From Podarcis bocagei (Eukaryota): a stretch of DNA of 64,000 bases. How positions within the stretch are numbered: position 1 is the stretch's first letter; each line of letters opens with the position of its first letter. The notes below the pieces were generated by a model. The model had not been told where the DNA came from and ran no database searches. It saw nothing but the letters and a program-made list of their open reading frames with translations. Made by a program: the position numbers and the translations under genes. This document shows positions 3,896 to 62,614 of this stretch, one piece after another. The DNA lies in the NCBI GenBank assembly GCA_964188305.1, contig OZ076899.1. One strand, written 5' to 3'.

Positions 3896-6800
3896 TAATA
3901 ATAATAATAATAATAATAATTTTTTATTTATACCCCGCCCTCCCCAGCCAAGGCCAGGCTCAGAGCGGCTTACAAGCAATAATAAAAACAAGATGAGTGA
4001 TTACAACTTAAAAACAAAAATAAAATACAACATTAAAATAATGGAACATTAAAATATTAAAATGGAGCCTCATTGCAGGAGAAGGAAAAGAAAAAAGAAA
4101 AAGGGGGCGGAGGGAATCAAATTGGCTCCAATCCAAAGGCCAGGCGGAACAACTCTGTCTTACAGGCCCTGCGGAAAGAGATCAGATCCTGCAGGGCCCT
4201 GGTCTCATGAGACAGAGCGTTCCACCAAGTTGGGGCCAGTGCTGAAAAGGCCCTGGCTCTGGTTGAAGCCAATCTAACTTCCTTAGGGCCTGGGACCACT
4301 AGGGTGTTGTTATTTATGGACCTTGAGGCTCTCCGTGGGGCATACCAGGCGAGGCGGTCCCGTAGGTACGAGGGTCCTAGGCCGTGAAGGGCTTTAAAGG
4401 TCAAAAGCAGCACCTTAAATCTGACCCTGTACTCCACCGGGAGCCAGTGCAGCTTGAAAAGCACTGGATGAATATGCTCCCATGGCAGAGACGCTGTGAG
4501 GAGCCTCGCTGCAGCATTCTGTACCCGCTGGAGTTTCTGGGACAGCTTCAAGGGCAGCCCCGCGTAGAGCGAGTTACAGTAGTCAAGCCTGGAGATGACT
4601 GTCGCATGGATCACTGTGGCCAGGTCGGGGCGGGAAAGGTAAGGGACCAACTGCTTGATGCGGCGAAGGTGGAAAAATGTCGCCTTGGCTGTTGCTGTGA
4701 CTTGCGCCTCCATGGAAAGGGAGGCGTCAAGGATTACACCCAAACTCTTAACGGAAGGCAATGGCACTAATTGGGCCCCCGCAAGAGAAGGGAGTTGGTC
4801 CCTCATCCCCATGCTATCCCGACCTAGCCATAGGACCTCTGTCTTCGAAGGATTTAGTTTCAATCGGCTCCCACGAAACCATCCAGCCACAGCTTCCAAG
4901 CATCTGGTCAGTGTGTAAGGGGCCGAGTTGGTGTGGCCATCCATCAGTAGATAGAGCTGAGTGTCATCAGCATATTGATGACAGCCCAGCCCAAAGCTCC
5001 GGATAATCTGGGCAAGGGGGCGCATAAAGATGTTAAAAAGCATTGGGGAGAGAATTGCGCCCTGCGGCACTCCACACACCAAGGAGTGGCGTGACGACAT
5101 TTCCCTCCCTAGTGCCACCCTCTGTCCCCGACCAGAGATAAAAGAGCACAACCAGTTACGGGCTATGCCCTGTATCCCCACGTCTGCAAGGCGATGGTCC
5201 AGAAGATCATGATCGACCATGTCAAAGGCTGCTGACAAATCTAAAAGGATCAGCAGTCCTGACCCGCCTCGATCCAGTTGTCTACGGATATCATCTGTTA
5301 GGGCAACCAGAGCCGTCTCCGTCCCAAAACCAGGACGGAAACCGGACTGAAATGGATCTAATGCCGATGTTTCCTCCAGAAACCTACCAAGCTGTTCAGC
5401 AACCGCTCTCTCAATTACCTTACCCAGGTATGGAAGATTTGAAACTGGGCGGTAATTGGATAGGTCTAAGGGATCTAATGAAGCTTTCTTTAAGAGTGGA
5501 CGCACCACTGCTTCCTTCAGTTCCCCTGGGAATGTCCCCGTGTCAAGGGACAAATTGATAATTTCAACCAGGGGGGTCCGCGCAACATCTGGACACTCCC
5601 TAATCAGCCAAGACGGGCACGGATCAAGGAGGCAGGTGGTGGGCCTACCAACTTGGAGGAATCTATCCACATCAGTAGGGAGTATCCGATCGAAATGGTC
5701 CAACACTGGACCTGAAGTCAGTCGAGGGGCCTCCAGTTCAGTCACTGTATCTAAATTGGCAGGGAGGTCACGGCGGAGCAACAGGACTTTCTCCGCAAAA
5801 AAGCTCGCGAATGCCTCACAGCTGTGGGTCGAATTTGTGCTTAAATTTGGTTGTCCTCCTAAGGACGTTATTGACCTAATTATTCTAAAAAGTTGTGCCG
5901 GGCGAGAGCTAGCGGATGCAATAGAAGCTGCAAAGTAAGATTTCTTAGCAGCTTTCATAGCCATCTCATAGGCTTTCATAAGCGTCCTATAAGATGTTCT
6001 TGAGGCTCCGTCATGAGTCCGTCGCCATACTCGCTCTAGCCGTCTGAGATCCCGCTTCATTTTCCGGAGGTCCTCAGTAAACCAAGGGGCCCGGTTTCGA
6101 CGGGGTCGCAGAGGGCGCTTAGGCGCGATTTCATCAATGGCTGCCAAGAGCCGGTTATTCCAGTCCTCAACAAGGTCATCTAATGAGTCGCCAGGAGGAG
6201 CAGGGTTCCGCAAGGCTTGTCGGAATCTATCAGGATCCATCAGTTTTCGCGGACGAGCCCAAATAGGCTCGGCACCCGAGCCGGGGAGGAGCGGGAAGTC
6301 AATCTTGGCTTTTAAAGCGTAGTGATCAGACCATGGCACTTTCACAGCGGGGAGCATGATCACATCTATGCCAGCCCCAAAGATCAGATCCAGCGTGTGG
6401 CCTGCTTGATGAGTGGGGCCCAAAACAAATTGGGAGAGCCCTAGTGTTGCCATGGAAGTCACTAGGTCTAGAGCCTGTGAGGAGGGAGCGGCATCGGCAT
6501 GGACGTTGAAGTCTCCCAAAACCAGTAGGTTTGGGAACTCCAAGGCCCAGCCCGCCACCACCTCCAGCAGATCTGACAGGGTGGCTGCAGATGTGCTGGG
6601 TGGTCGGTACACCAGCCAGACAGCCAAGCTCTCCTTGGTGCCCCACACGAGACCAACACATTCAATGCCGGAGATTGCCGGTGATGGCAGAGCTCTGAAA
6701 GAGCAATCCTCCCGGAATAACAACGCTACTCCTCCCCCCCGACCTACAGTCCGCGATTGATGGAGGACAGAGAAACCTGGGGGTGTTATCTCATGTAGGG

Positions 6801-7262
6801 AGACTACTTCGCCTTCCCGTACCCAGGTCTCCGTCACGCAAGCCAGGTCAATCCCCTGCGAGACAAAAAAGTCACGCATGGTGGCAGTTTTGTTGCCTAT
6901 GGACCTGGCATTGCACAGCACCAATGACGGAGGTGTGTAATCCTTGTTCTCCCTACCCTCATCCCTTGGGATGGGGCGTAGATTGGAAGGGGTTCGAGGA
7001 TCACTGCATCTCGAAACCCTTCGCCGATAGAGATATCTAGCCCTACCGCCATTCCTCCCTAGCCCTTCAATTGTGGAAATCCTAGATCCCATACTAGCCT
7101 CCCCAATAGATGGGTAACATCCCCTCAATAACAAGTCATCCTTGGGCCAGGACTCCTGGGTCAAAATGGTATGGGAAAGAGGTGGAGGTTTGATAGGGTA
7201 AGTATCCCTAGAAGATAAAACCCAACCAACCGCACCCCAAGCGGGGGGGGACAGTCCCATGG
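3896..7262 (-). mobile_element. L2-clade LINE with intact ORF2, 3' UTR and (TTA)n tail
   Basis: Uninterrupted, GC/CpG-rich ORF; 3' end TGTAAGCCGCTCTGAG...GGGCGGGGTATAAAT followed by a microsatellite tail at 3896-3920. The 5' boundary is approximate and no TSD was found. Confidence 0.92.
4117..7260 (-). CDS. L2 LINE ORF2: APE endonuclease plus reverse transcriptase
   Basis: APE motifs CNARS, VTETW, VYRPP, GDFN, TLD, SDH; RT motifs FQSGFR, LDLSAAFD, GVPQG, YADDTQLY; L2-type C-terminus LHWLPV...RAFS..AP..WNAL...KTELF. Confidence 0.94.
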   Translation of the reverse strand: MGLSPPAWGAVGWVLSSRDTYPIKPPPLSHTILTQESWPKDDLLLRGCYPSIGEASMGSRISTIEGLGRNGGRARYLYRRRVSRCSDPRTPSNLRPIPRDEGRENKDYTPPSLVLCNARSIGNKTATMRDFFVSQGIDLACVTETWVREGEVVSLHEITPPGFSVLHQSRTVGRGGGVALLFREDCSFRALPSPAISGIECVGLVWGTKESLAVWLVYRPPSTSAATLSDLLEVVAGWALEFPNLLVLGDFNVHADAAPSSQALDLVTSMATLGLSQFVLGPTHQAGHTLDLIFGAGIDVIMLPAVKVPWSDHYALKAKIDFPLLPGSGAEPIWARPRKLMDPDRFRQALRNPAPPGDSLDDLVEDWNNRLLAAIDEIAPKRPLRPRRNRAPWFTEDLRKMKRDLRRLERVWRRTHDGASRTSYRTLMKAYEMAMKAAKKSYFAASIASASSRPAQLFRIIRSITSLGGQPNLSTNSTHSCEAFASFFAEKVLLLRRDLPANLDTVTELEAPRLTSGPVLDHFDRILPTDVDRFLQVGRPTTCLLDPCPSWLIRECPDVARTPLVEIINLSLDTGTFPGELKEAVVRPLLKKASLDPLDLSNYRPVSNLPYLGKVIERAVAEQLGRFLEETSALDPFQSGFRPGFGTETALVALTDDIRRQLDRGGSGLLILLDLSAAFDMVDHDLLDHRLADVGIQGIARNWLCSFISGRGQRVALGREMSSRHSLVCGVPQGAILSPMLFNIFMRPLAQIIRSFGLGCHQYADDTQLYLLMDGHTNSAPYTLTRCLEAVAGWFRGSRLKLNPSKTEVLWLGRDSMGMRDQLPSLAGAQLVPLPSVKSLGVILDASLSMEAQVTATAKATFFHLRRIKQLVPYLSRPDLATVIHATVISRLDYCNSLYAGLPLKLSQKLQRVQNAAARLLTASLPWEHIHPVLFKLHWLPVEYRVRFKVLLLTFKALHGLGPSYLRDRLAWYAPRRASRSINNNTLVVPGPKEVRLASTRARAFSALAPTWWNALSHETRALQDLISFRRACKTELFRLAFGLEPI

Positions 7263-7389
7263 TGAAGGGCCTTTGAGCAGCACGCTCAAAACAAGCATGC
7301 TGCTTGTCAGCATTAATCCATAGTTTGTTTTAAGACCAAATGACTGCAGTATGTGGGATTGTCCTTGGTTCTGGTTTGGAAGCTTGTGC

Positions 7390-26139: not shown

Positions 26140-26413
26140 CTTTATCCATTGCAGAGGTGACTGTGATCTTGTCTGCTGGATCCTTATGTCCTTTAAGGGC
26201 AGAAAATAGTGGAGACAAAGTGGAGGTGGGCAGGTCCAAATAACTCTTTATCCAATTCAGCTGTCCAAGGATTTGTTGTAAATCCACCAATCTAAGATAA
26301 CCAGGAAACTGTAGTTGAGGCGTAACTGGAATGGCTGCAGATGCTGTCAGCTTGTGTCCCAGGTACGTAATAGGTAAGGTCCGCTGGATTTTTTCTTTAG
26401 CCACTGTCAATCC
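26140..26413 (-). pseudogene. pol: ERV pol remnant (end of RT palm plus RT thumb)
   Basis: GLTVAKEKIQ...PITYLG...LVDLQQILGQLNWIKSYLDL...LSPLFSALKG fits a class II RT thumb. No protease, YxDD, RNase H or recognisable integrase. Lower boundary is approximate. Confidence 0.88.
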
Positions 26414-27824
26414 AACAGGTTGTAGCCTTTGCAGGATTTTGGGACACGGCGGAGGACAAGGCCGTGGCTAGCAGGCCGTGGCTAGCAGTGCCCACTGACT
26501 TGCAGGCTGTAAGGATATCAGCAATGGCTATATTTGATGTTGCCATTAGAAGACGCAGCACTTGCTTATGGTTCTCATTTACATTAGTGAACGCAAGCTG
26601 GTGTACAGTCAGGTCTTGTGCTGCCAGGTCCTGAACTTGCCGCTTGAAGGTATTATACAAGCGATCAACAAATTGTCCATAGGGCTTTGCAGGGTCCTGT
26701 CTGATGCTTCCCAATAGGCCATCGCGCTCATTCTTGTCATCAGGGACAGAGGCCAGAGCCTCTTGGGCAGCGGCTGTAGTGGCCTCCCAATACTGAGGTT
26801 GGAGAGTTAGCTGTTGGGCAGCAGTAAGAAAATTGCCTCCTCCCGTTAACCCATCAAGGACATCAGCTTGGGTTAACATGACGGGGGCTGGGGGTGGGGC
26901 GGCACCAGCAGCGGCAGCAGCCAAAGCAGCCTGATGATTAGCCAATGCAGCATTATTAAGATTATTCCGAATCCCATCAACACGACGTTGGCAGGCCCAG
27001 TGCCAAGCTTGTATAAACAAAATCATTTGATGAGGCTGCATTACAGTGCGGGCCAACAGCTTAACATCCTCTGGTATCAAATTTTGTTGAAAAATAGTGC
27101 CAAACAAGCCCAGGGTGTAAGGAGATTGTAAACCATTGTCCTTGACAGAGGAATGCAGTTCCTTTATGAATCTCAAATCAAACTGTTCGTGCCGGGCTGG
27201 GCCTCCCCCTGGCGCGGCAGGAGCAATCACAGGGAAGAGATTAGGAGTTGCACAGTCAAAACCCAACAATGGGGCAGCGGCACGGAGAGATTCTTGGAGA
27301 GGAGTAGTAACAGCGGTGGCAGAGGCCTTGGGCGCAGGAGTTGGAAGAGTGGGGGGTGCTGAATGCGAAGATTCTTGGAGAGGAGTAGTAACGGGAGGTG
27401 CAGGAAGTGAAGAATGCGGAGAATGCAGGGGAGGGACGACAGGAGGAGCCGGAGGGAAAATGTCCGGCGGTTTAGGAGGTAGGTTTGAGGCAGGCAAAAC
27501 AGGTACCTGAAGGGCGGGCGAAGAAGCTGTCGCAGCAGCCAGAAGAATGTTTGAAGGAGTTAAACACGACATAGCTTTGTAGACGTTACTCCAGGCATGC
27601 AAAACCTTGACATCAATTTGTGGATGATTTTGAAAGAAGTGTCCAATTTTTTTCCAATCATCTAACTGCCAATTTCCGTCCTGGGGGAACCACGGGCAGT
27701 GAGTGTCCAGGGCTATTATAAGGGACTTAAGGTCAGCTTTCCGAACAGCAAGGTTGTTACTGGCCAAAAGGAATTTAAGGTCTTTATAAAATTTTTTCTG
27801 TGGTGCAGAGAGAGATTTTCCCAT
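26397..27824 (-). CDS. gag: ERV Gag (MA, Pro-rich spacer, CA), truncated at the first NC zinc-knuckle Cys
   Basis: MG myristoylation start; beta-type MA motif CPWFP..G.W...W; CA motif IKEL..SV..NG..SPYT; degenerate MHR IRQDPAKPYGQFVDRL; ends TTCW-IDSG* at a deletion junction. Confidence 0.92.
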   Translation of the reverse strand: MGKSLSAPQKKFYKDLKFLLASNNLAVRKADLKSLIIALDTHCPWFPQDGNWQLDDWKKIGHFFQNHPQIDVKVLHAWSNVYKAMSCLTPSNILLAAATASSPALQVPVLPASNLPPKPPDIFPPAPPVVPPLHSPHSSLPAPPVTTPLQESSHSAPPTLPTPAPKASATAVTTPLQESLRAAAPLLGFDCATPNLFPVIAPAAPGGGPARHEQFDLRFIKELHSSVKDNGLQSPYTLGLFGTIFQQNLIPEDVKLLARTVMQPHQMILFIQAWHWACQRRVDGIRNNLNNAALANHQAALAAAAAGAAPPPAPVMLTQADVLDGLTGGGNFLTAAQQLTLQPQYWEATTAAAQEALASVPDDKNERDGLLGSIRQDPAKPYGQFVDRLYNTFKRQVQDLAAQDLTVHQLAFTNVNENHKQVLRLLMATSNIAIADILTACKSVGTASHGLLATALSSAVSQNPAKATTCWIDSG

Positions 27825-27850
27825 GATTGCAAGAGTTGCAAAAAAAGGCA

Positions 27851-28224
27851 GGGAGCACTTACCGAGGGATCCGTAGGAGGATGAGGAAGGCGCCTTTTTG
27901 CCCTGTCCGGGCGGAGATAAGTGCTGATAAGTCCGTAACGTAGTCCAGAATCACATTCACACGGGAGCTCTCACCAGGGATCCACTACGTGGATGAACGA
28001 CGCGTCTGCAGCCCTTGCGGGGCGAGGTGAGAGCTGAACGTTGTAAAACAGCATGAAATCCGAAAGAAATCACACGGGAGCACTCACCAGGGATCCACTA
28101 CGTGGATGAACGACGTGTTGGTGAGTGCTGAATAATGAAAAACAGGCAGTCACACGGGAGCACTCACCAGGGATCCACTACGTGGATGAACGACGTGTTG
28201 GTGAGTGCTGAATAATGAAAAACA
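27851..28224 (-). repeat. ERV leader repeat array (4 hairpin units, each with a splice-donor motif)
   Basis: Units at about 27851-27926, 27957-28038, 28070-28144 and 28150-28224; the last two are identical at 80-bp spacing. Confidence 0.85.
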
Positions 28225-28240
28225 ACGTGAAGTCCGAAGG

Positions 28241-28258
28241 CAGTCACACGGGGCACCA
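28241..28258 (-). promoter_or_regulatory. Primer binding site, tRNA-Met(elongator)-like
   Basis: TGGTGCCCCGTGTGACTG lies 2 nt after the 5' LTR. The first 15 nt complement the vertebrate elongator tRNA-Met 3' end (...TCACACGGGGCACCA), recalled from memory. Confidence 0.8.
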
Positions 28259-28260
28259 AA

Positions 28261-28598
28261 TGTCGAGTTGCAGCTCGACATCCAGGGAAAAATCAGTCTC
28301 ACACCATGAGGGGTTCCGAAATATGGCTGCTCCTAGGGCTAATGCAGCACAGCTTTTATTGTGTGAAATAGAAAAGATACAAAAAATACAAGTCAAGCAA
28401 TTTGTTCTAGCCAGCAGATAAAGACCTTGGTACTAGACCATGCGAGCAATCAGGCCATGCTACGTTAGCCAATCATATGGGACAGCACGAGCTGTTCACG
28501 CGCTATTCATGCTCCAAGGATGCTTCTAGCTATGAGATCACCCTGCAACAATAAGAACTTTGCTCATGCTCTCATGTACAAGCAATCATTTTCCCACA
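28261..28598 (-). repeat. ERV 5' LTR
   Basis: Minus strand TGTGGGAAAA...CTCGACA; matches 23969-24306 with no difference seen by eye; followed by TT and the PBS. Confidence 0.96.
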
Positions 28599-28610
28599 AC
28601 CAGAGTATCT

Positions 28611-28668
28611 TAGAATCATGGAGTTGGAAGGGACCTCAGTGGTCATCTAACCCAACCTCTTGCTAATG
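28611..28668 (-). mobile_element. CR1 3' end fragment
   Basis: tagaatcatggagttggaagggacc...tcatctaacccaacc is a typical CR1 terminus. Confidence 0.65.
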
Positions 28669-29337
28669 TAGAAAGTCGATTGCTAATTGAGTAGGATCCT
28701 AGATCATCACAGTAAATGTTCAATACAGGGTTATATCCTAGAAGAACAGCTAAGTAACCCACAGCAATAATAGATCCCACATGGGAAGGATCACATCATA
28801 TTCTGCATTTCACTGATTAGGAAGGTGGGATTTTGCCTTGAGTCAATCAAGGGATAAGCTCGGGTGATCATAAAGGAACTGCCTACAAAGCCCAAGGGAG
28901 CCCTGCTTCCCACTTTTAGCTCTTTTTTCCTTTGCTAATAGCATTTCAGTTATAACTGTTAACAGATATGTTATTTTGGAAGCATGCAAGATGAGTAATA
29001 GGGAGTCAAAAACCACATATTTTATGACCTTTTGCAAGCTTGCATCGTGAACAATTAAAAGATTATAATGTGCATTCTAATTTTTGAGATGTTGAATTTA
29101 ATTAAATGAAGGCAAGTCTATCATCTTTTAACAAAATCAAATTATTTCTGGAATCAGTTTACAACAACAATTAAAAAATTACAATCTGTATATTCAGGGC
29201 AAAATGTGGATTTATGTACTCTTGAAATACTTAGCGACCAAATTTGCAAAACCCAGTGAGTTGTTAGAAATGTTTCCATTTTCAACTGAATTTTTAGCTG
29301 TCTGTATAAAATAGGCATGATCTTCAATATTCAAATA

Positions 29338-55462: not shown

Positions 55463-55728
55463 ACTGTACGTTCTTCTTGATCTGTTTTTTCATTCAAGCA
55501 CCTCTTAAGACACATGTGTTCAATTTGGCTTTTCCCAAGTCACTCTTTCCCCCTTTTACTTTTCTTTCTTCCCTAATTTATCTTGTCTTTAGTAATTTTA
55601 GGCACCCTATAAGTCATAATATCTCCTGTGTGCAGAAAAAAAGCAATCTGTCAGAGTTATCCTGATACTAGTTGGCTTCTTTTTCACAAATGCTTCTTTT
55701 TTCCTTTAAAAACAAAAACAAAACTCAG

Positions 55729-56754
55729 GTAGCTGAACTGAAAATGGAGCTCAAGATAAGAGGATTGCCAGTGTCTGGAACTAAAATGGATCTTATTGAG
55801 CGTTTGAAACCCTATCAGGATCTTAACAATAATTCTATCAATGCTAGTCATACAGCGGCAGTTACTCCTTCCACTAATTGTACCAGCCAGCCTGGAGAAA
55901 TAACTGCCGTATTCCCTGTTGCTACATTAAACAAGCCAATAGCTAGCTCAGTTTCCAGCTTTTCTTCAGAAACAACATCTGGTGGAACTGGCGGCAAATC
56001 AACACCTATGGAATGCATCAACTCCCCTTTGCCCATTTCCCCGTCTCCTTCAGAGCCGTCCAGTCTCAGCACGGATGACACTAACATGGCAGATACTTTG
56101 ACGGAAATCATGACCGTGATGTCTCCATCACAGTTCCCAAATGCATCACCTCCTCTTCGAGCTAACACAAATGAGGACAGTCACGGCAGTGGAAGCATGT
56201 TCGGCATGGAGCTTGATGCAGCAGAAAAGGACCGTAAGCTTCAAGAAAAAGAGAAGCAGATTGAAGAGCTCAAAAGAAAACTGGAGCAAGAGCAGAAACT
56301 CGTGGAAGTGCTGAAAATGCAACTTGAAGTTGAGAAGCGGGTTCAGCAGCAGCAACCCCAAGCCTCAGCTAATATTACACTGACTTTGAATCAGAAGCGT
56401 ATCGGTCATGATGTCAAAGAGGAAGGCACTTTAGCAGATTGCTCTGATGCAAAACAACCTGTATCTGAAGCCAACCATTCTTTAGGACAGCCAGCATCAG
56501 TGGATGTCCAGAACCTAGTTGCCAAAAAGGCTATTGTTATCAAACAGGAGGTACCTTTGGCCAAAGCTGAACCACAAAATGTCATATCTCAGTTTTATGT
56601 AAGTTCGCAGAGACAGCCACAAACTGCTGTTGTTGCCCAGCCTCAAGCTCTACTTACTGCACAAGGAACAGCACAGCTGCTACTGCCACTCTCTCTCCAG
56701 GGTCCAAATTCTGCCACTTCAATGCAACTACCTGTGGGCAGTATCCAGGTACAG
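55729..56754 (+). CDS. MRTFB: MRTFB large exon, SAP domain and leucine zipper
   Basis: VAELKMELKIRGLPVSGTKMDLIERLKPYQ (SAP) and LQEKEKQIEELKRKLEQEQKLVEVLKMQL (zipper); donor CAG|gtacga, with a possible in-frame donor at 56749. Confidence 0.95.
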
Positions 56755-58422
56755 GTACGAAAGGTTCCTCCATTTTGAGTTATTTGTCATTGTCACTTAC
56801 AATCTGATAGCCATGGGCAATTTTCTTCATGTGAATTCAGTGACTGTTTTATCTATTGTGGTTTGTTATGGATGTTGAGGGTCATCAGGGGAACCCTGTT
56901 CACCTCACAGAGCTACAATTCCTAGATTGGTTTAACAGCCAGTTCCTTTCACTATGGAACTCTGGGAAATGTAGTTCTCTGAAGGGAATAGGGGACTCCT
57001 GACTACTCTCAGACCCAAGATTCTTTGGAGGAAGTCATGACTGTTTAAAGCTGTACGATAGTGCTTTAAACGTATATTGCAGGTGGATCCTGCACTGGCC
57101 ATAGGATCTAATGTAAATGGATTCAAAAGTCATACCAGTTATTAGATTAGAGCTCTAGGTTAGGCCTCTGGTACCAGTGCAAGGGGGATTTACTGTGAGT
57201 TGCTGCTTCAACACAGTGGCTGACAGAAATATATTAATAATCCATTCTGTTATTACTATAAGAATAGTTGTTCTTGTGAACAGCTTGCCATAAAACATAA
57301 TAAGAGAAAATCTCATGTGCCTAGATGAATGCAAGACATAAAATGTGCCACATATACAAATTCTGGGATTTTCAAAAGAGAAAGAAAGAAAAAGACACTT
57401 TCTTGCAATATGTATAACTGGAAGTGGCACCAGCACACCTTTTCAGGATTTCTTAAGAAGTGCCTGGTGAACTGGCGCTAGAACAGGGAGTGATGTCAGT
57501 TAGAAAATTCATTTTAAAGAGACTTGGATTGACCAACTCACTCTCCTTCCCATATTTTTTCTAGAGCAGGGTTAATGATTACATGCACACCTTGGAATGC
57601 TCCTCTCAAGTGAGTGTGTAATAAAAAATGCATAATTTTGGCTTCACTCATTGTTTCCCTTATCTCTAAAAGATGTATCTAGTCATCTTAAGGAAGAAGG
57701 CATAGCTCAGTGGTAGAGCACATTCCCGGTTTGATGTGCGCCTTTCAAGTAATCTAAAAGGATCTCCATTAAGTGGGATGGGAGATGCATTTGTAGAAGA
57801 CCTTGGAGAGCTGCTACTTATCAGCACAGACAGTACCAGGCCAGATGGGCCGGTGGTTTGGCTCAGTTTTAGGTATATTTAAATGTCTCTTGTGTCAGGT
57901 CAAGATGGAGGGATGCAACTGAAATACATAATTGCATCACACACAATCACACACCCCTGTACTACATATACAAGCAGCAAGCACTATTTGCTTCTTCCCT
58001 CTAAAAGCTGCAAAACCGCTTTACAGAGCCACACTGACCATGACTCTTTCTCATGTAGAACAGGACAGTGAGGTTTAACTTAACAAGAGTTGTTGTGATT
58101 GTTGCATTTACCATGCAGCTCTTAATTTTCCTTTCAGCTTTCTGTTCCGCAGCTTTCAAGGCCCACTGTGACATCACAGAAGCCAAGCCAATTGAAGCCA
58201 CAGTGGTCGTAACACCTTTCTGTCCATAAAGTAGTATTTGCTGCTCATGGACTGTGAACATGCGAACCCACCATCTTCCTTAGCACTGTGTTTAGATACT
58301 TCAGGAGGACTTGATGTCAAACATTTAAAGATTCATTATAACATCCCTGGGTTTCTTTCTTTATGCATATAGTCCAGCTGAGTCCTGTACTGTGAAATCA
58401 AGCCATACTCTTTCTCCTGTAG

Positions 58423-60924: not shown

Positions 60925-61785
60925 ATTTGCTGCTCCCCACCCCCACCCTCCACCCCAGGAGCACACAGCCTTCCCTCTGCTTGCAAACCTTGCAGGGACT
61001 TCAGGGGAAAGCAAAGGCTGTAGGCAGAGCAGTGTAGCTCCCCACCCCCCACCCCCCAAAAGCACCCCAGCAGCACACAATCTTCCCTCTGCTTCCAAAC
61101 CTTGTCGGGACTTCAGGGGAAAGCAAAGGCTGTAGGCATAGCAGTGTGGCTCCTCCCCCCACCCCCCAAAAGCACCCCAGCAGCACACAATCTTCCCTCT
61201 GCTTCCAAACCTTGCAAACCTTGTCGGGACTTCAGGGGAAAGCAAAGGCTGTAGGCATAGCAGTGTGGCTCCTCCCCCCACCCCCCAAAAGCACCCCAGC
61301 AGCACACAATCTTCCCTCTGCTTCCAAACCTTGCAAACCTTGTCGGGACTTCAGGGGAAAGCAAAGGGTGTAGGCAGAGCAGTGTGGCTCCTCCCCCCAC
61401 CCCCAAAAAGCACCCCAGCAGCACACAATCTTCCCTCTGCTTCCAAACCTTGCAAACCTTGTCGGGACTTCAGGGGAAAGCAAAGGGTGTAGGCAGAGCA
61501 GTGTGGCTCCTCCCCCCACCCCCAAAAAGCACCCCAGCAGCACACAATCTTCCCTCTGCTTCCAAACCTTGCAAACCTTGTCGGGACTTCAGGGGAAAGC
61601 AAAGGCTGTAGGCAGAGCCGTGTGGCTCCTCCCCCCACCCCCAAAGAGCAGCCCGGGAGCGCACAGCCTTCCCGCTGCTTGCAAACCTTGCAAACCTTAT
61701 CGGGACTTCAGGGGAAAGCAGAGGCTGCCGGCACAGCACCGTGGCTCCTCCCCCCACCCCCAAAGAGCAGCCCAGGAGCACAAGA
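60925..61785. repeat. 119-bp minisatellite, about 7 copies
   Basis: Repeating peptides in the ORF track at 119-nt spacing (61146, 61265, 61384, 61503, 61622); C-rich tracts. Confidence 0.93.
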
Positions 61786-62614
61786 CAACAGCGATTTGGC
61801 TCCAGGGAACACACATTCGCTCCATAAGACGCACAGACTTTTTCCCTTACTTTTTGGGAGGGAAAAAGTGCGTCCTATGGAGCGAAAAATACGGTACAAA
61901 GACCAGGAATGTCAGTCCCTGCCTTTAGGCTTACAATCTAAAAGATGCAAAACAAAAGGAAAAGAGATCAGGAGGGATTAGCAGGGAAGCAAACTCAGAC
62001 ACTGCTTCTTAGTTACAAAGGACGTAAAATAACCAGTCAGAATGAAAAAAGTTCAAGGACAGCAGGAGCTGGAGGTTTCTGGTCTCTCGATATAGCAGCT
62101 GCCTTTTATGCAGCTTGATGTAATAGCTTATACTTTGTTCCCCTACCCTAGAATATACATGCTCTAGGAGGTTGCTAGAGTAACATATTGGAGGCACTGC
62201 GACCATGGCATAAAAACAAGGAGGCACCCTCTCTTTTTGACCTGAGAACTTTTAAATCTCAAGACAACTTCCAAACCAGATGGGGCCACATTTAAATGAT
62301 AGGGTTGTCTCCAAAGTTAATCCTACTCAGAAACAAGTGGGTACAACTAATGCTGGTGTTCAGCAGGTGTACTCTATATGAGACCTAGTCAGATTCAACC
62401 CTAAATGCCATAGGCTACACTTACTGCACAGCCATATAAAGGGAAGTTGTTCTTTATGTGCACTTTTCATTTCCAATAGATTAATGGACATGACGTACAA
62501 GGTGCTAAATTAGCACATTATTGTTTTTAAAGGAAAGTGATGTGGATTTCTTAGTGTTTGAGAACCTTCTGCTGCCACAATTATTTTCTGACTGTTTGCC
62601 ATTGTTTCACACAG

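Follow-up and report, generated by a model that had tools for sequence, protein, structure and literature searches.

Provirus and leader units in the window

The window analyzed here, a 64-kb (64,000-nucleotide) stretch of Podarcis bocagei contig OZ076899.1, carries a 4.6-kb provirus on its minus strand, and all proviral features below lie on that strand. Its two LTRs (5′ LTR, 338 bp, TG...CA, 28261 to 28598; 3′ LTR, 23969 to 24306) are 100% identical, and both flanks carry the 6-bp target site duplication TCTGGT (28599 to 28604, partner at 23963 to 23968). The primer binding site (PBS; 28241 to 28258) is that of tRNA-Met(CAT), the first 15 of its 18 nt being equal to the host tRNA 3′ end. A tighter pattern search found two host tRNA-Met(CAT) genes that match the PBS by their 3′ ends; a looser one gave no tRNA gene among the first ten PBS-complement loci. 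In 24 of 88 true-PBS copies of the family the site continues with the tRNA-matched GGC, as expected if tRNA-Met primes. A strong hairpin occupies the extreme end of U5 (28260 to 28281), directly 5′ of the PBS.

The gag frame, read from its ATG (26397 to 27824), has Pfam matches to the Gag_p10 matrix and capsid domains; it contains no zinc knuckles and thus appears to be truncated before NC. Most of pro-pol is deleted, leaving a pol remnant that matches the RT thumb only (25997 to 26467). A stop-to-stop env frame with a TLV_coat match (24352 to 26247) is open over 631 codons. The best PDB matches of Gag include HERV-K capsid and M-PMV matrix, and an RT stretch from the family matches 7sr6, which we take to be HERV-K RT, at 1e-66 versus HIV-2 at 6e-37. 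Judged by these best matches, Gag and RT are closest to the beta type, and we classify the provirus as a young class II (beta-like) endogenous retrovirus (ERV); the 6-bp target site duplication, a class II trait, is present on both sides. Members of the genus Betaretrovirus use a tRNA-Lys primer and encode a dUTPase in pro. By primer the provirus is not a Betaretrovirus, its PBS matching tRNA-Met(CAT) and not tRNA-Lys; a single simple dUTPase motif was found in 0 of 60 loci, a crude test, most of these loci having no pro. Elsewhere the window holds a 368-aa frame with a SAP domain (55672 to 56778), probably one exon of a host gene of the myocardin family, with the provirus on the opposite strand; a 1,070-aa open frame resembling a LINE endonuclease/RT (4117 to 7329); and a tandem array of ∼119-bp units (60935 to 61867).

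Between the PBS and gag lie four units, each closed by an inverted repeat whose 3′ strand contains a GT splice donor. Unit 1 (28159 to 28209) is a short module consisting of a closing stem with donor 1 and a variable hairpin (28173 to 28187); it has neither the purine-loop hairpin nor the 6-nt palindrome described below. Unit 2 (28079 to 28129; donor 2, hairpin at 28093 to 28107) is identical to it. Unit 3 (27966 to 28035) is a complete module: its closing stem, with donor 3, encloses a pentaloop hairpin (28011 to 28023), the palindrome GACGCGTC (27999 to 28006), and a variable hairpin (27980 to 27994). Unit 4 (27854 to 27925) is likewise complete, with donor 4 (exon end at 27863), a GGACA hairpin (27900 to 27912), the palindrome AGGCGCCT (27888 to 27895), and a variable hairpin (27869 to 27882). 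At the junctions between units 1 and 2 (28150 to 28158), 2 and 3 (28070 to 28078), and 3 and 4 (27957 to 27965) stands a copy of the PBS core, CCCGTGTGA.

This layout bears out most of what a first-pass annotation had read from the letters: all four inverted-repeat pairs, the inner ATCCAC-GTA-GTGGAT hairpins of three units, the three PBS-core copies, and the donors inside the 3′ arms are where it had placed them. A pyrimidine tract, which it reported for three units, is lacking in unit 4. The palindromes had been overlooked. The claim that paired arms covary holds across other loci; units 1 and 2 share 75 nt without a difference, so the window alone offers only two double changes, too few for such a call. 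A CAG said to begin the 5′ arm is not conserved, being found in 0 of the 19 modules parsed from the most distant family (family C, below).

None of 100 shuffles folds as well as the complete leader (z = −4.5), and the single units give z scores of −3.0, −3.0, −2.3, and −1.9. Units 1 and 3 fold equally well on the opposite strand (z = −3.7 and −2.9), so folding energy cannot choose the strand by itself. Rfam covariance models gave no match up to E = 5 in positions 27700 to 28700.

Conservation of the module among related loci

A matrix-protein search, in which 150 of 420 candidates were scored, separated three identity tiers: family A (≥91%; 79 hits), family B (69 to 78%; 41 hits), and family C (49 to 60%; 30 hits). 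We read leaders at 138 loci: 78 from A (77 of the hits plus one other), 40 of the 41 from B, and 20 of the 30 from C. Family A leaders contain two (n = 1), three (n = 23), four (n = 51), or five (n = 3) modules, family B leaders one (n = 5) or two (n = 35), and all 20 family C leaders just one; by this distribution, with C having a single copy, the unit is one leader element that has been multiplied. Almost all of the copy number variation in family A lies in short modules, and 77 of 78 leaders retain at least one of these. LTR pairs in family A are 97 to 100% identical, and most copies carry internal deletions that differ from copy to copy; the family is thus young and was probably mobilized in trans. 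Thirty-three family A loci were read over 10 kb: the 9 that have protease, RT, or NC motifs hold three to four modules, and the 24 that do not hold three to five; we therefore rejected the idea that multiplication is peculiar to deleted, nonautonomous copies. The 5′ part of gag survives to a length of 223 nt or more in 32 of the 33 fully read loci of family A. Four family B loci (L073, the L074/L075 group, and L079) have a partial third module just 5′ of gag, with a variable hairpin and a decayed donor and without a closing stem. Most family C copies and a large number of PBS matches lie on a single contig, as they might on a repeat-rich sex chromosome.

A complete module has a closing stem of 10 to 11 bp, whose 3′ strand is the donor, enclosing three elements: a hairpin whose loop has 5 nt, a palindrome, and a second hairpin, the loop of which varies freely. 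Most modules have GGACA, CGCAA, or GGCAA as the first loop (5 nt, versus 9 nt in mouse mammary tumor virus [MMTV]), and this purine loop is predicted to be 0.31 to 0.99 unpaired. Run on 37 modules, RNAalifold recovered both the closing stem and the pentaloop hairpin. In the same 37 modules 98.6% of cells are paired and 5 of 10 pairs show double changes; 0 of 500 shuffles matched this score and slid controls paired in 24 to 47%, figures to be read with the reservation that relatedness inflates the test. A second test is partly free of this inflation: among minor pair types, those found in at least three loci preserve pairing in 14 of 15 cases, versus 5 of 15 for those in one or two loci (Fisher P = 0.002). 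These are counts of loci rather than independent events, the double changes amounting by eye to about ten lineage events, and one family C locus without the 5′ arm was excluded. Minor types common to three or more loci include eight G-U pairs versus one C-A, a bias that speaks for the viral RNA strand, and the short modules of family B have compensatory changes of their own. We conclude from these comparisons that the unit is one conserved structured RNA module across the 138 related loci. By covariation and prediction, the 3′ strand of its closing stem lies at or after the major donor, as in MMTV stem-loop 4 (SL4).

Palindromes of at least 6 nt occupy 19 of 22 distinct junctions, versus a chance expectation of ∼0.15 for each. 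GGCGCC, ACGCGT, GGTACC, or AGCGCT is present in 207 of 215 complete modules, and six of the eight failures are single CpG-type changes. Among short modules the palindrome is missing from 136 of 136 in family A and kept in 16 of 34 in family B. The sequence CTGCAG in unit 3, identical to the MMTV palindrome, was set aside because most other lineages lack it. In six one-module leaders the palindrome, which sits in the junction and not in an apical loop, is predicted to be 0.55 to 0.83 unpaired and the donor 0 to 0.16; in the whole-leader fold of the window, the unit 4 palindrome is predicted to be mostly paired (0.18 unpaired) and the outer stem of that unit to be weak (0.22). Change of sequence with self-complementarity kept is how dimerization sites behave among HIV-1 subtypes (PMC3187697).

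Complete modules within one leader commonly carry different palindromes. Palindromes are discordant in 72 of 78 family A leaders and concordant in none; the 72 cases descend from one ancestor, so the discordance is a lead and not proof. Nor is it a rule, since 11 of 40 family B leaders have the same hexamer twice. Predicted self-pairing energies are −16.1 kcal/mol for the unit 3 junction and −18.1 kcal/mol for that of unit 4, versus −8.2 kcal/mol between them. With different palindromes in units 3 and 4 and none in the short modules, self-dimers would probably be avoided.

Donor use and growth of the array

RNA data under the same species label comprised three raw runs, each covered to 6 to 12% (370, 584, and 178 reads), and a contig set. 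The RNA reads are mostly 90 to 99% alike and so derive from multiple copies. Inside the element most first mates map to the plus strand; this fits viral-sense RNA provided that the libraries are of the usual type. Leader depth is about 4 to 13 in the two bulk runs. Twelve reads show a 94-nt repeat in the RNA. Two reads from one run join donor 4 to an acceptor-like site, TTCTTATTGTTGCAG, in U3 of the 3′ LTR (24251 to 24265), and none of the joints listed uses donors 1 to 3. In the two donor 4 reads the intervening letters match a natural unit 4 variant up to the donor (31/32, by eye), and the U3 acceptor is exact in 27 of 33 family A loci. Among the joints listed, no GT-AG joint has three or more reads; there are 61 loose ends besides. 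Several non-GT-AG joints look like deletion variants of other copies. A micro-exon running from the acceptor-like site to the donor of a unit was rejected, since no such joint is listed and the CAG is not conserved. A search for spliced DNA copies found none: 78 of 78 module 4 matches retain the donor and 73 of 73 PBS-head matches adjoin one, with the caveat that most of these copies carry internal deletions.

The predicted unpaired fractions of donors 1 to 4 are 0, 0, 0, and 0.26. In the array the gag-proximal donor would be the one likely to splice, with the upstream donors locked in stems of 10 to 11 bp. RNA spliced at donor 4 would leave units 1 to 3 folded, and this would undo a discrimination between unspliced and spliced RNA of the MMTV kind; exclusion of spliced RNA would then need something else, such as 5′ gag.

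The internal PBS cores pair with tRNA-Met at a predicted −22.7 to −25.6 kcal/mol, versus −33.2 kcal/mol for the PBS. The pairing is interrupted beside the tRNA 3′ end and the cores overlap the closing stem, which weakens the earlier suggestion that they supply extra tRNA annealing sites; by this modeling they are unlikely primers, though they may bind Gag as the MMTV PBS does. They look more like duplication junctions, or scars, than priming sites. In family A the head found at the true PBS also follows 60 internal junctions, two of which carry the tRNA-matched end. The spacer of unit 3 agrees with a one-module family B leader in 35 of 37 nt, the spacer of unit 4 agrees with two-module family B leaders in 33 of 34 nt, and in family B a drifted whole PBS separates the modules. 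Plain U5-PBS duplications without a module occur in 9 of 78 family A leaders, so that spot is readily duplicated. Leaders L004, L006, L013, L014, L024, and L025 carry the U5 end plus PBS as tandem duplications of 29 or 39 nt whose last letters are the tRNA-matched GGC. At some loci PBS matches lie ∼3.5 to 4.2 kb apart, as if a PBS copy accompanied the 3′ LTR. In family C, leaders L112 to L130 have their own short A-rich repeats starting at GTGTGAGG-like PBS ends, which suggests PBS-anchored duplication there too.

These junctions are consistent with a route in which minus-strand synthesis, ending at the PBS, would jump to a PBS-like site on a copackaged RNA, so that leader segments stack; each unit would be a whole post-PBS leader segment, chained via PBS homology, and some would come from different lineages. 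Families A and B have palindromes in common and form a patchwork, 71 to 76% identical near matrix and 89 to 92% in parts of capsid/RT. Family C has its own palindrome, and none of the 10 loci read shows patches relative to the window, an absence that could stem from divergence alone. RT deletes direct repeats efficiently (110 bp lost at 41% in a single cycle; PMC3187697), and the persistence of the array therefore suggests selection or steady reduplication.

Interpretation and comparison with known systems

We read the repeated unit as a conserved module that is likely a dimerization/packaging domain of the genome, multiplied in the window to a four-unit array that probably grew by RT jumps at the PBS; we give this account a probability of roughly 0.65. 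The palindrome would start RNA dimerization and the purine loop would bind Gag. Because splicing would take away the 3′ strand of the closing stem, a one-module leader would fold the domain on unspliced RNA only, as MMTV SL4 does. The two spliced reads, both at the last donor, together with conservation of both palindrome and stems, make a multiplied domain of this kind likelier than the splicing-versus-packaging switch proposed in the first pass. The part of that proposal in which covarying stems bury donors within a packaging- or dimerization-like structure stands in the fold model; its four working switches do not fit donors 1 to 3 that are predicted to be fully paired. Such switches, each combining acceptor-like and donor sites to tune splicing against packaging, seem to us improbable even though all four donors are near consensus and stem-borne and structure is reported to attenuate the donor of murine leukemia virus (MLV) (PMC2794156): no joint from donors 1 to 3 is among those listed at a depth of about 4 to 13, the CAG is missing in family C, and a role in splicing only leaves the conserved palindrome and purine loop unexplained. 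We are slightly more doubtful that selection acts on the internal PBS cores themselves, as extra tRNA-annealing or Gag-binding sites. Their pairing with tRNA-Met persists and the MMTV PBS itself binds Gag (PMC8096270), but the broken pairing is in competition with the closing stem, family B has a drifted internal copy, and unit 4 has none. Maintenance of the inverted repeats by DNA-level template switching between arms, with no RNA function, would suit units that fold equally well on both strands; the excess of G-U over C-A among shared changes, the covariation of four separate elements, and an architecture kept across families whose matrix proteins are only 49 to 60% identical make it hardly credible.

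A rival that we consider quite plausible, if short of an even chance, accepts the function of the module and is compatible with our account of it: only one or two complete modules would matter, and the extra short copies may be passengers, neutral products of PBS-anchored slippage. Copy number in family A varies almost entirely in these short modules, which lack the purine loop and, in all 136 cases, the palindrome; module-free duplications arise at the same spot, and one-module relatives exist. Yet a short module persists in 77 of 78 leaders despite the repeat loss expected of RT, and the short modules of family B have compensatory changes of their own. Extending the dimerization/packaging account, we suggest, as a rather unlikely possibility, a natural "two-key" genome. 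Whole modules from different lineages, stacked at the PBS, would give one RNA two different dimerization palindromes, so that it could pair, be copackaged, and recombine with either of the parent lineages without forming self-dimers; extra Gag-binding sites would come from the short modules.

Good maps of packaging and dimerization signals exist for only a few retroviruses, and RNAs with two signals have been studied as engineered constructs. The genome analyzed here offers a natural series, with one to five modules, four palindrome types, and decayed variants. It allows tests, without designed constructs, of an effect of signal dose, of a limit that palindrome identity may set on recombination between lineages, and of the way in which spliced RNA is kept out once a donor-linked fold has been duplicated. 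Our literature search found no report of a repeated ERV leader module; its coverage was incomplete, and it does not establish absence from print.

The closest known structure is the bifurcated SL4 of MMTV (PMC6161677, PMC8096270). It too lies between PBS and gag in a class II leader, with a closing stem that holds a palindrome and a purine loop, and with the donor inside so that splicing breaks the fold. The palindrome lies in an apical loop in MMTV and in the junction here, where there are also an extra variable hairpin, a tRNA-Met primer, and one to five repeats of the domain; given this difference in the apical loop and the lack of a sequence match, we do not file the module as MMTV SL4. 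In MLV, RNA structure, an upstream stem-loop, likewise limits U1 access to the leader donor, in a gammaretrovirus that has a single donor and no repeated module (PMC2794156). The 23-nt insertion after the PBS of HIV-1 MAL/subtype A is another case of natural length variation directly after the PBS, but it is short and copies no whole structured domain (PMC11181671). HIV-1's core encapsidation signal also sequesters donor residues in a multiway junction formed on unspliced RNA only; it is a larger, single-copy structure with a kissing-loop hairpin (PMC7599994). HIV-1 engineered to carry two packaging signals provides a parallel to two signals per RNA: identical palindromes led to self-dimers (66% intermolecular, versus 98% for discordant palindromes; PMC3605237). 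Those are constructs with the second signal kilobases away, whereas the modules described here are natural and lie ∼110 nt apart.
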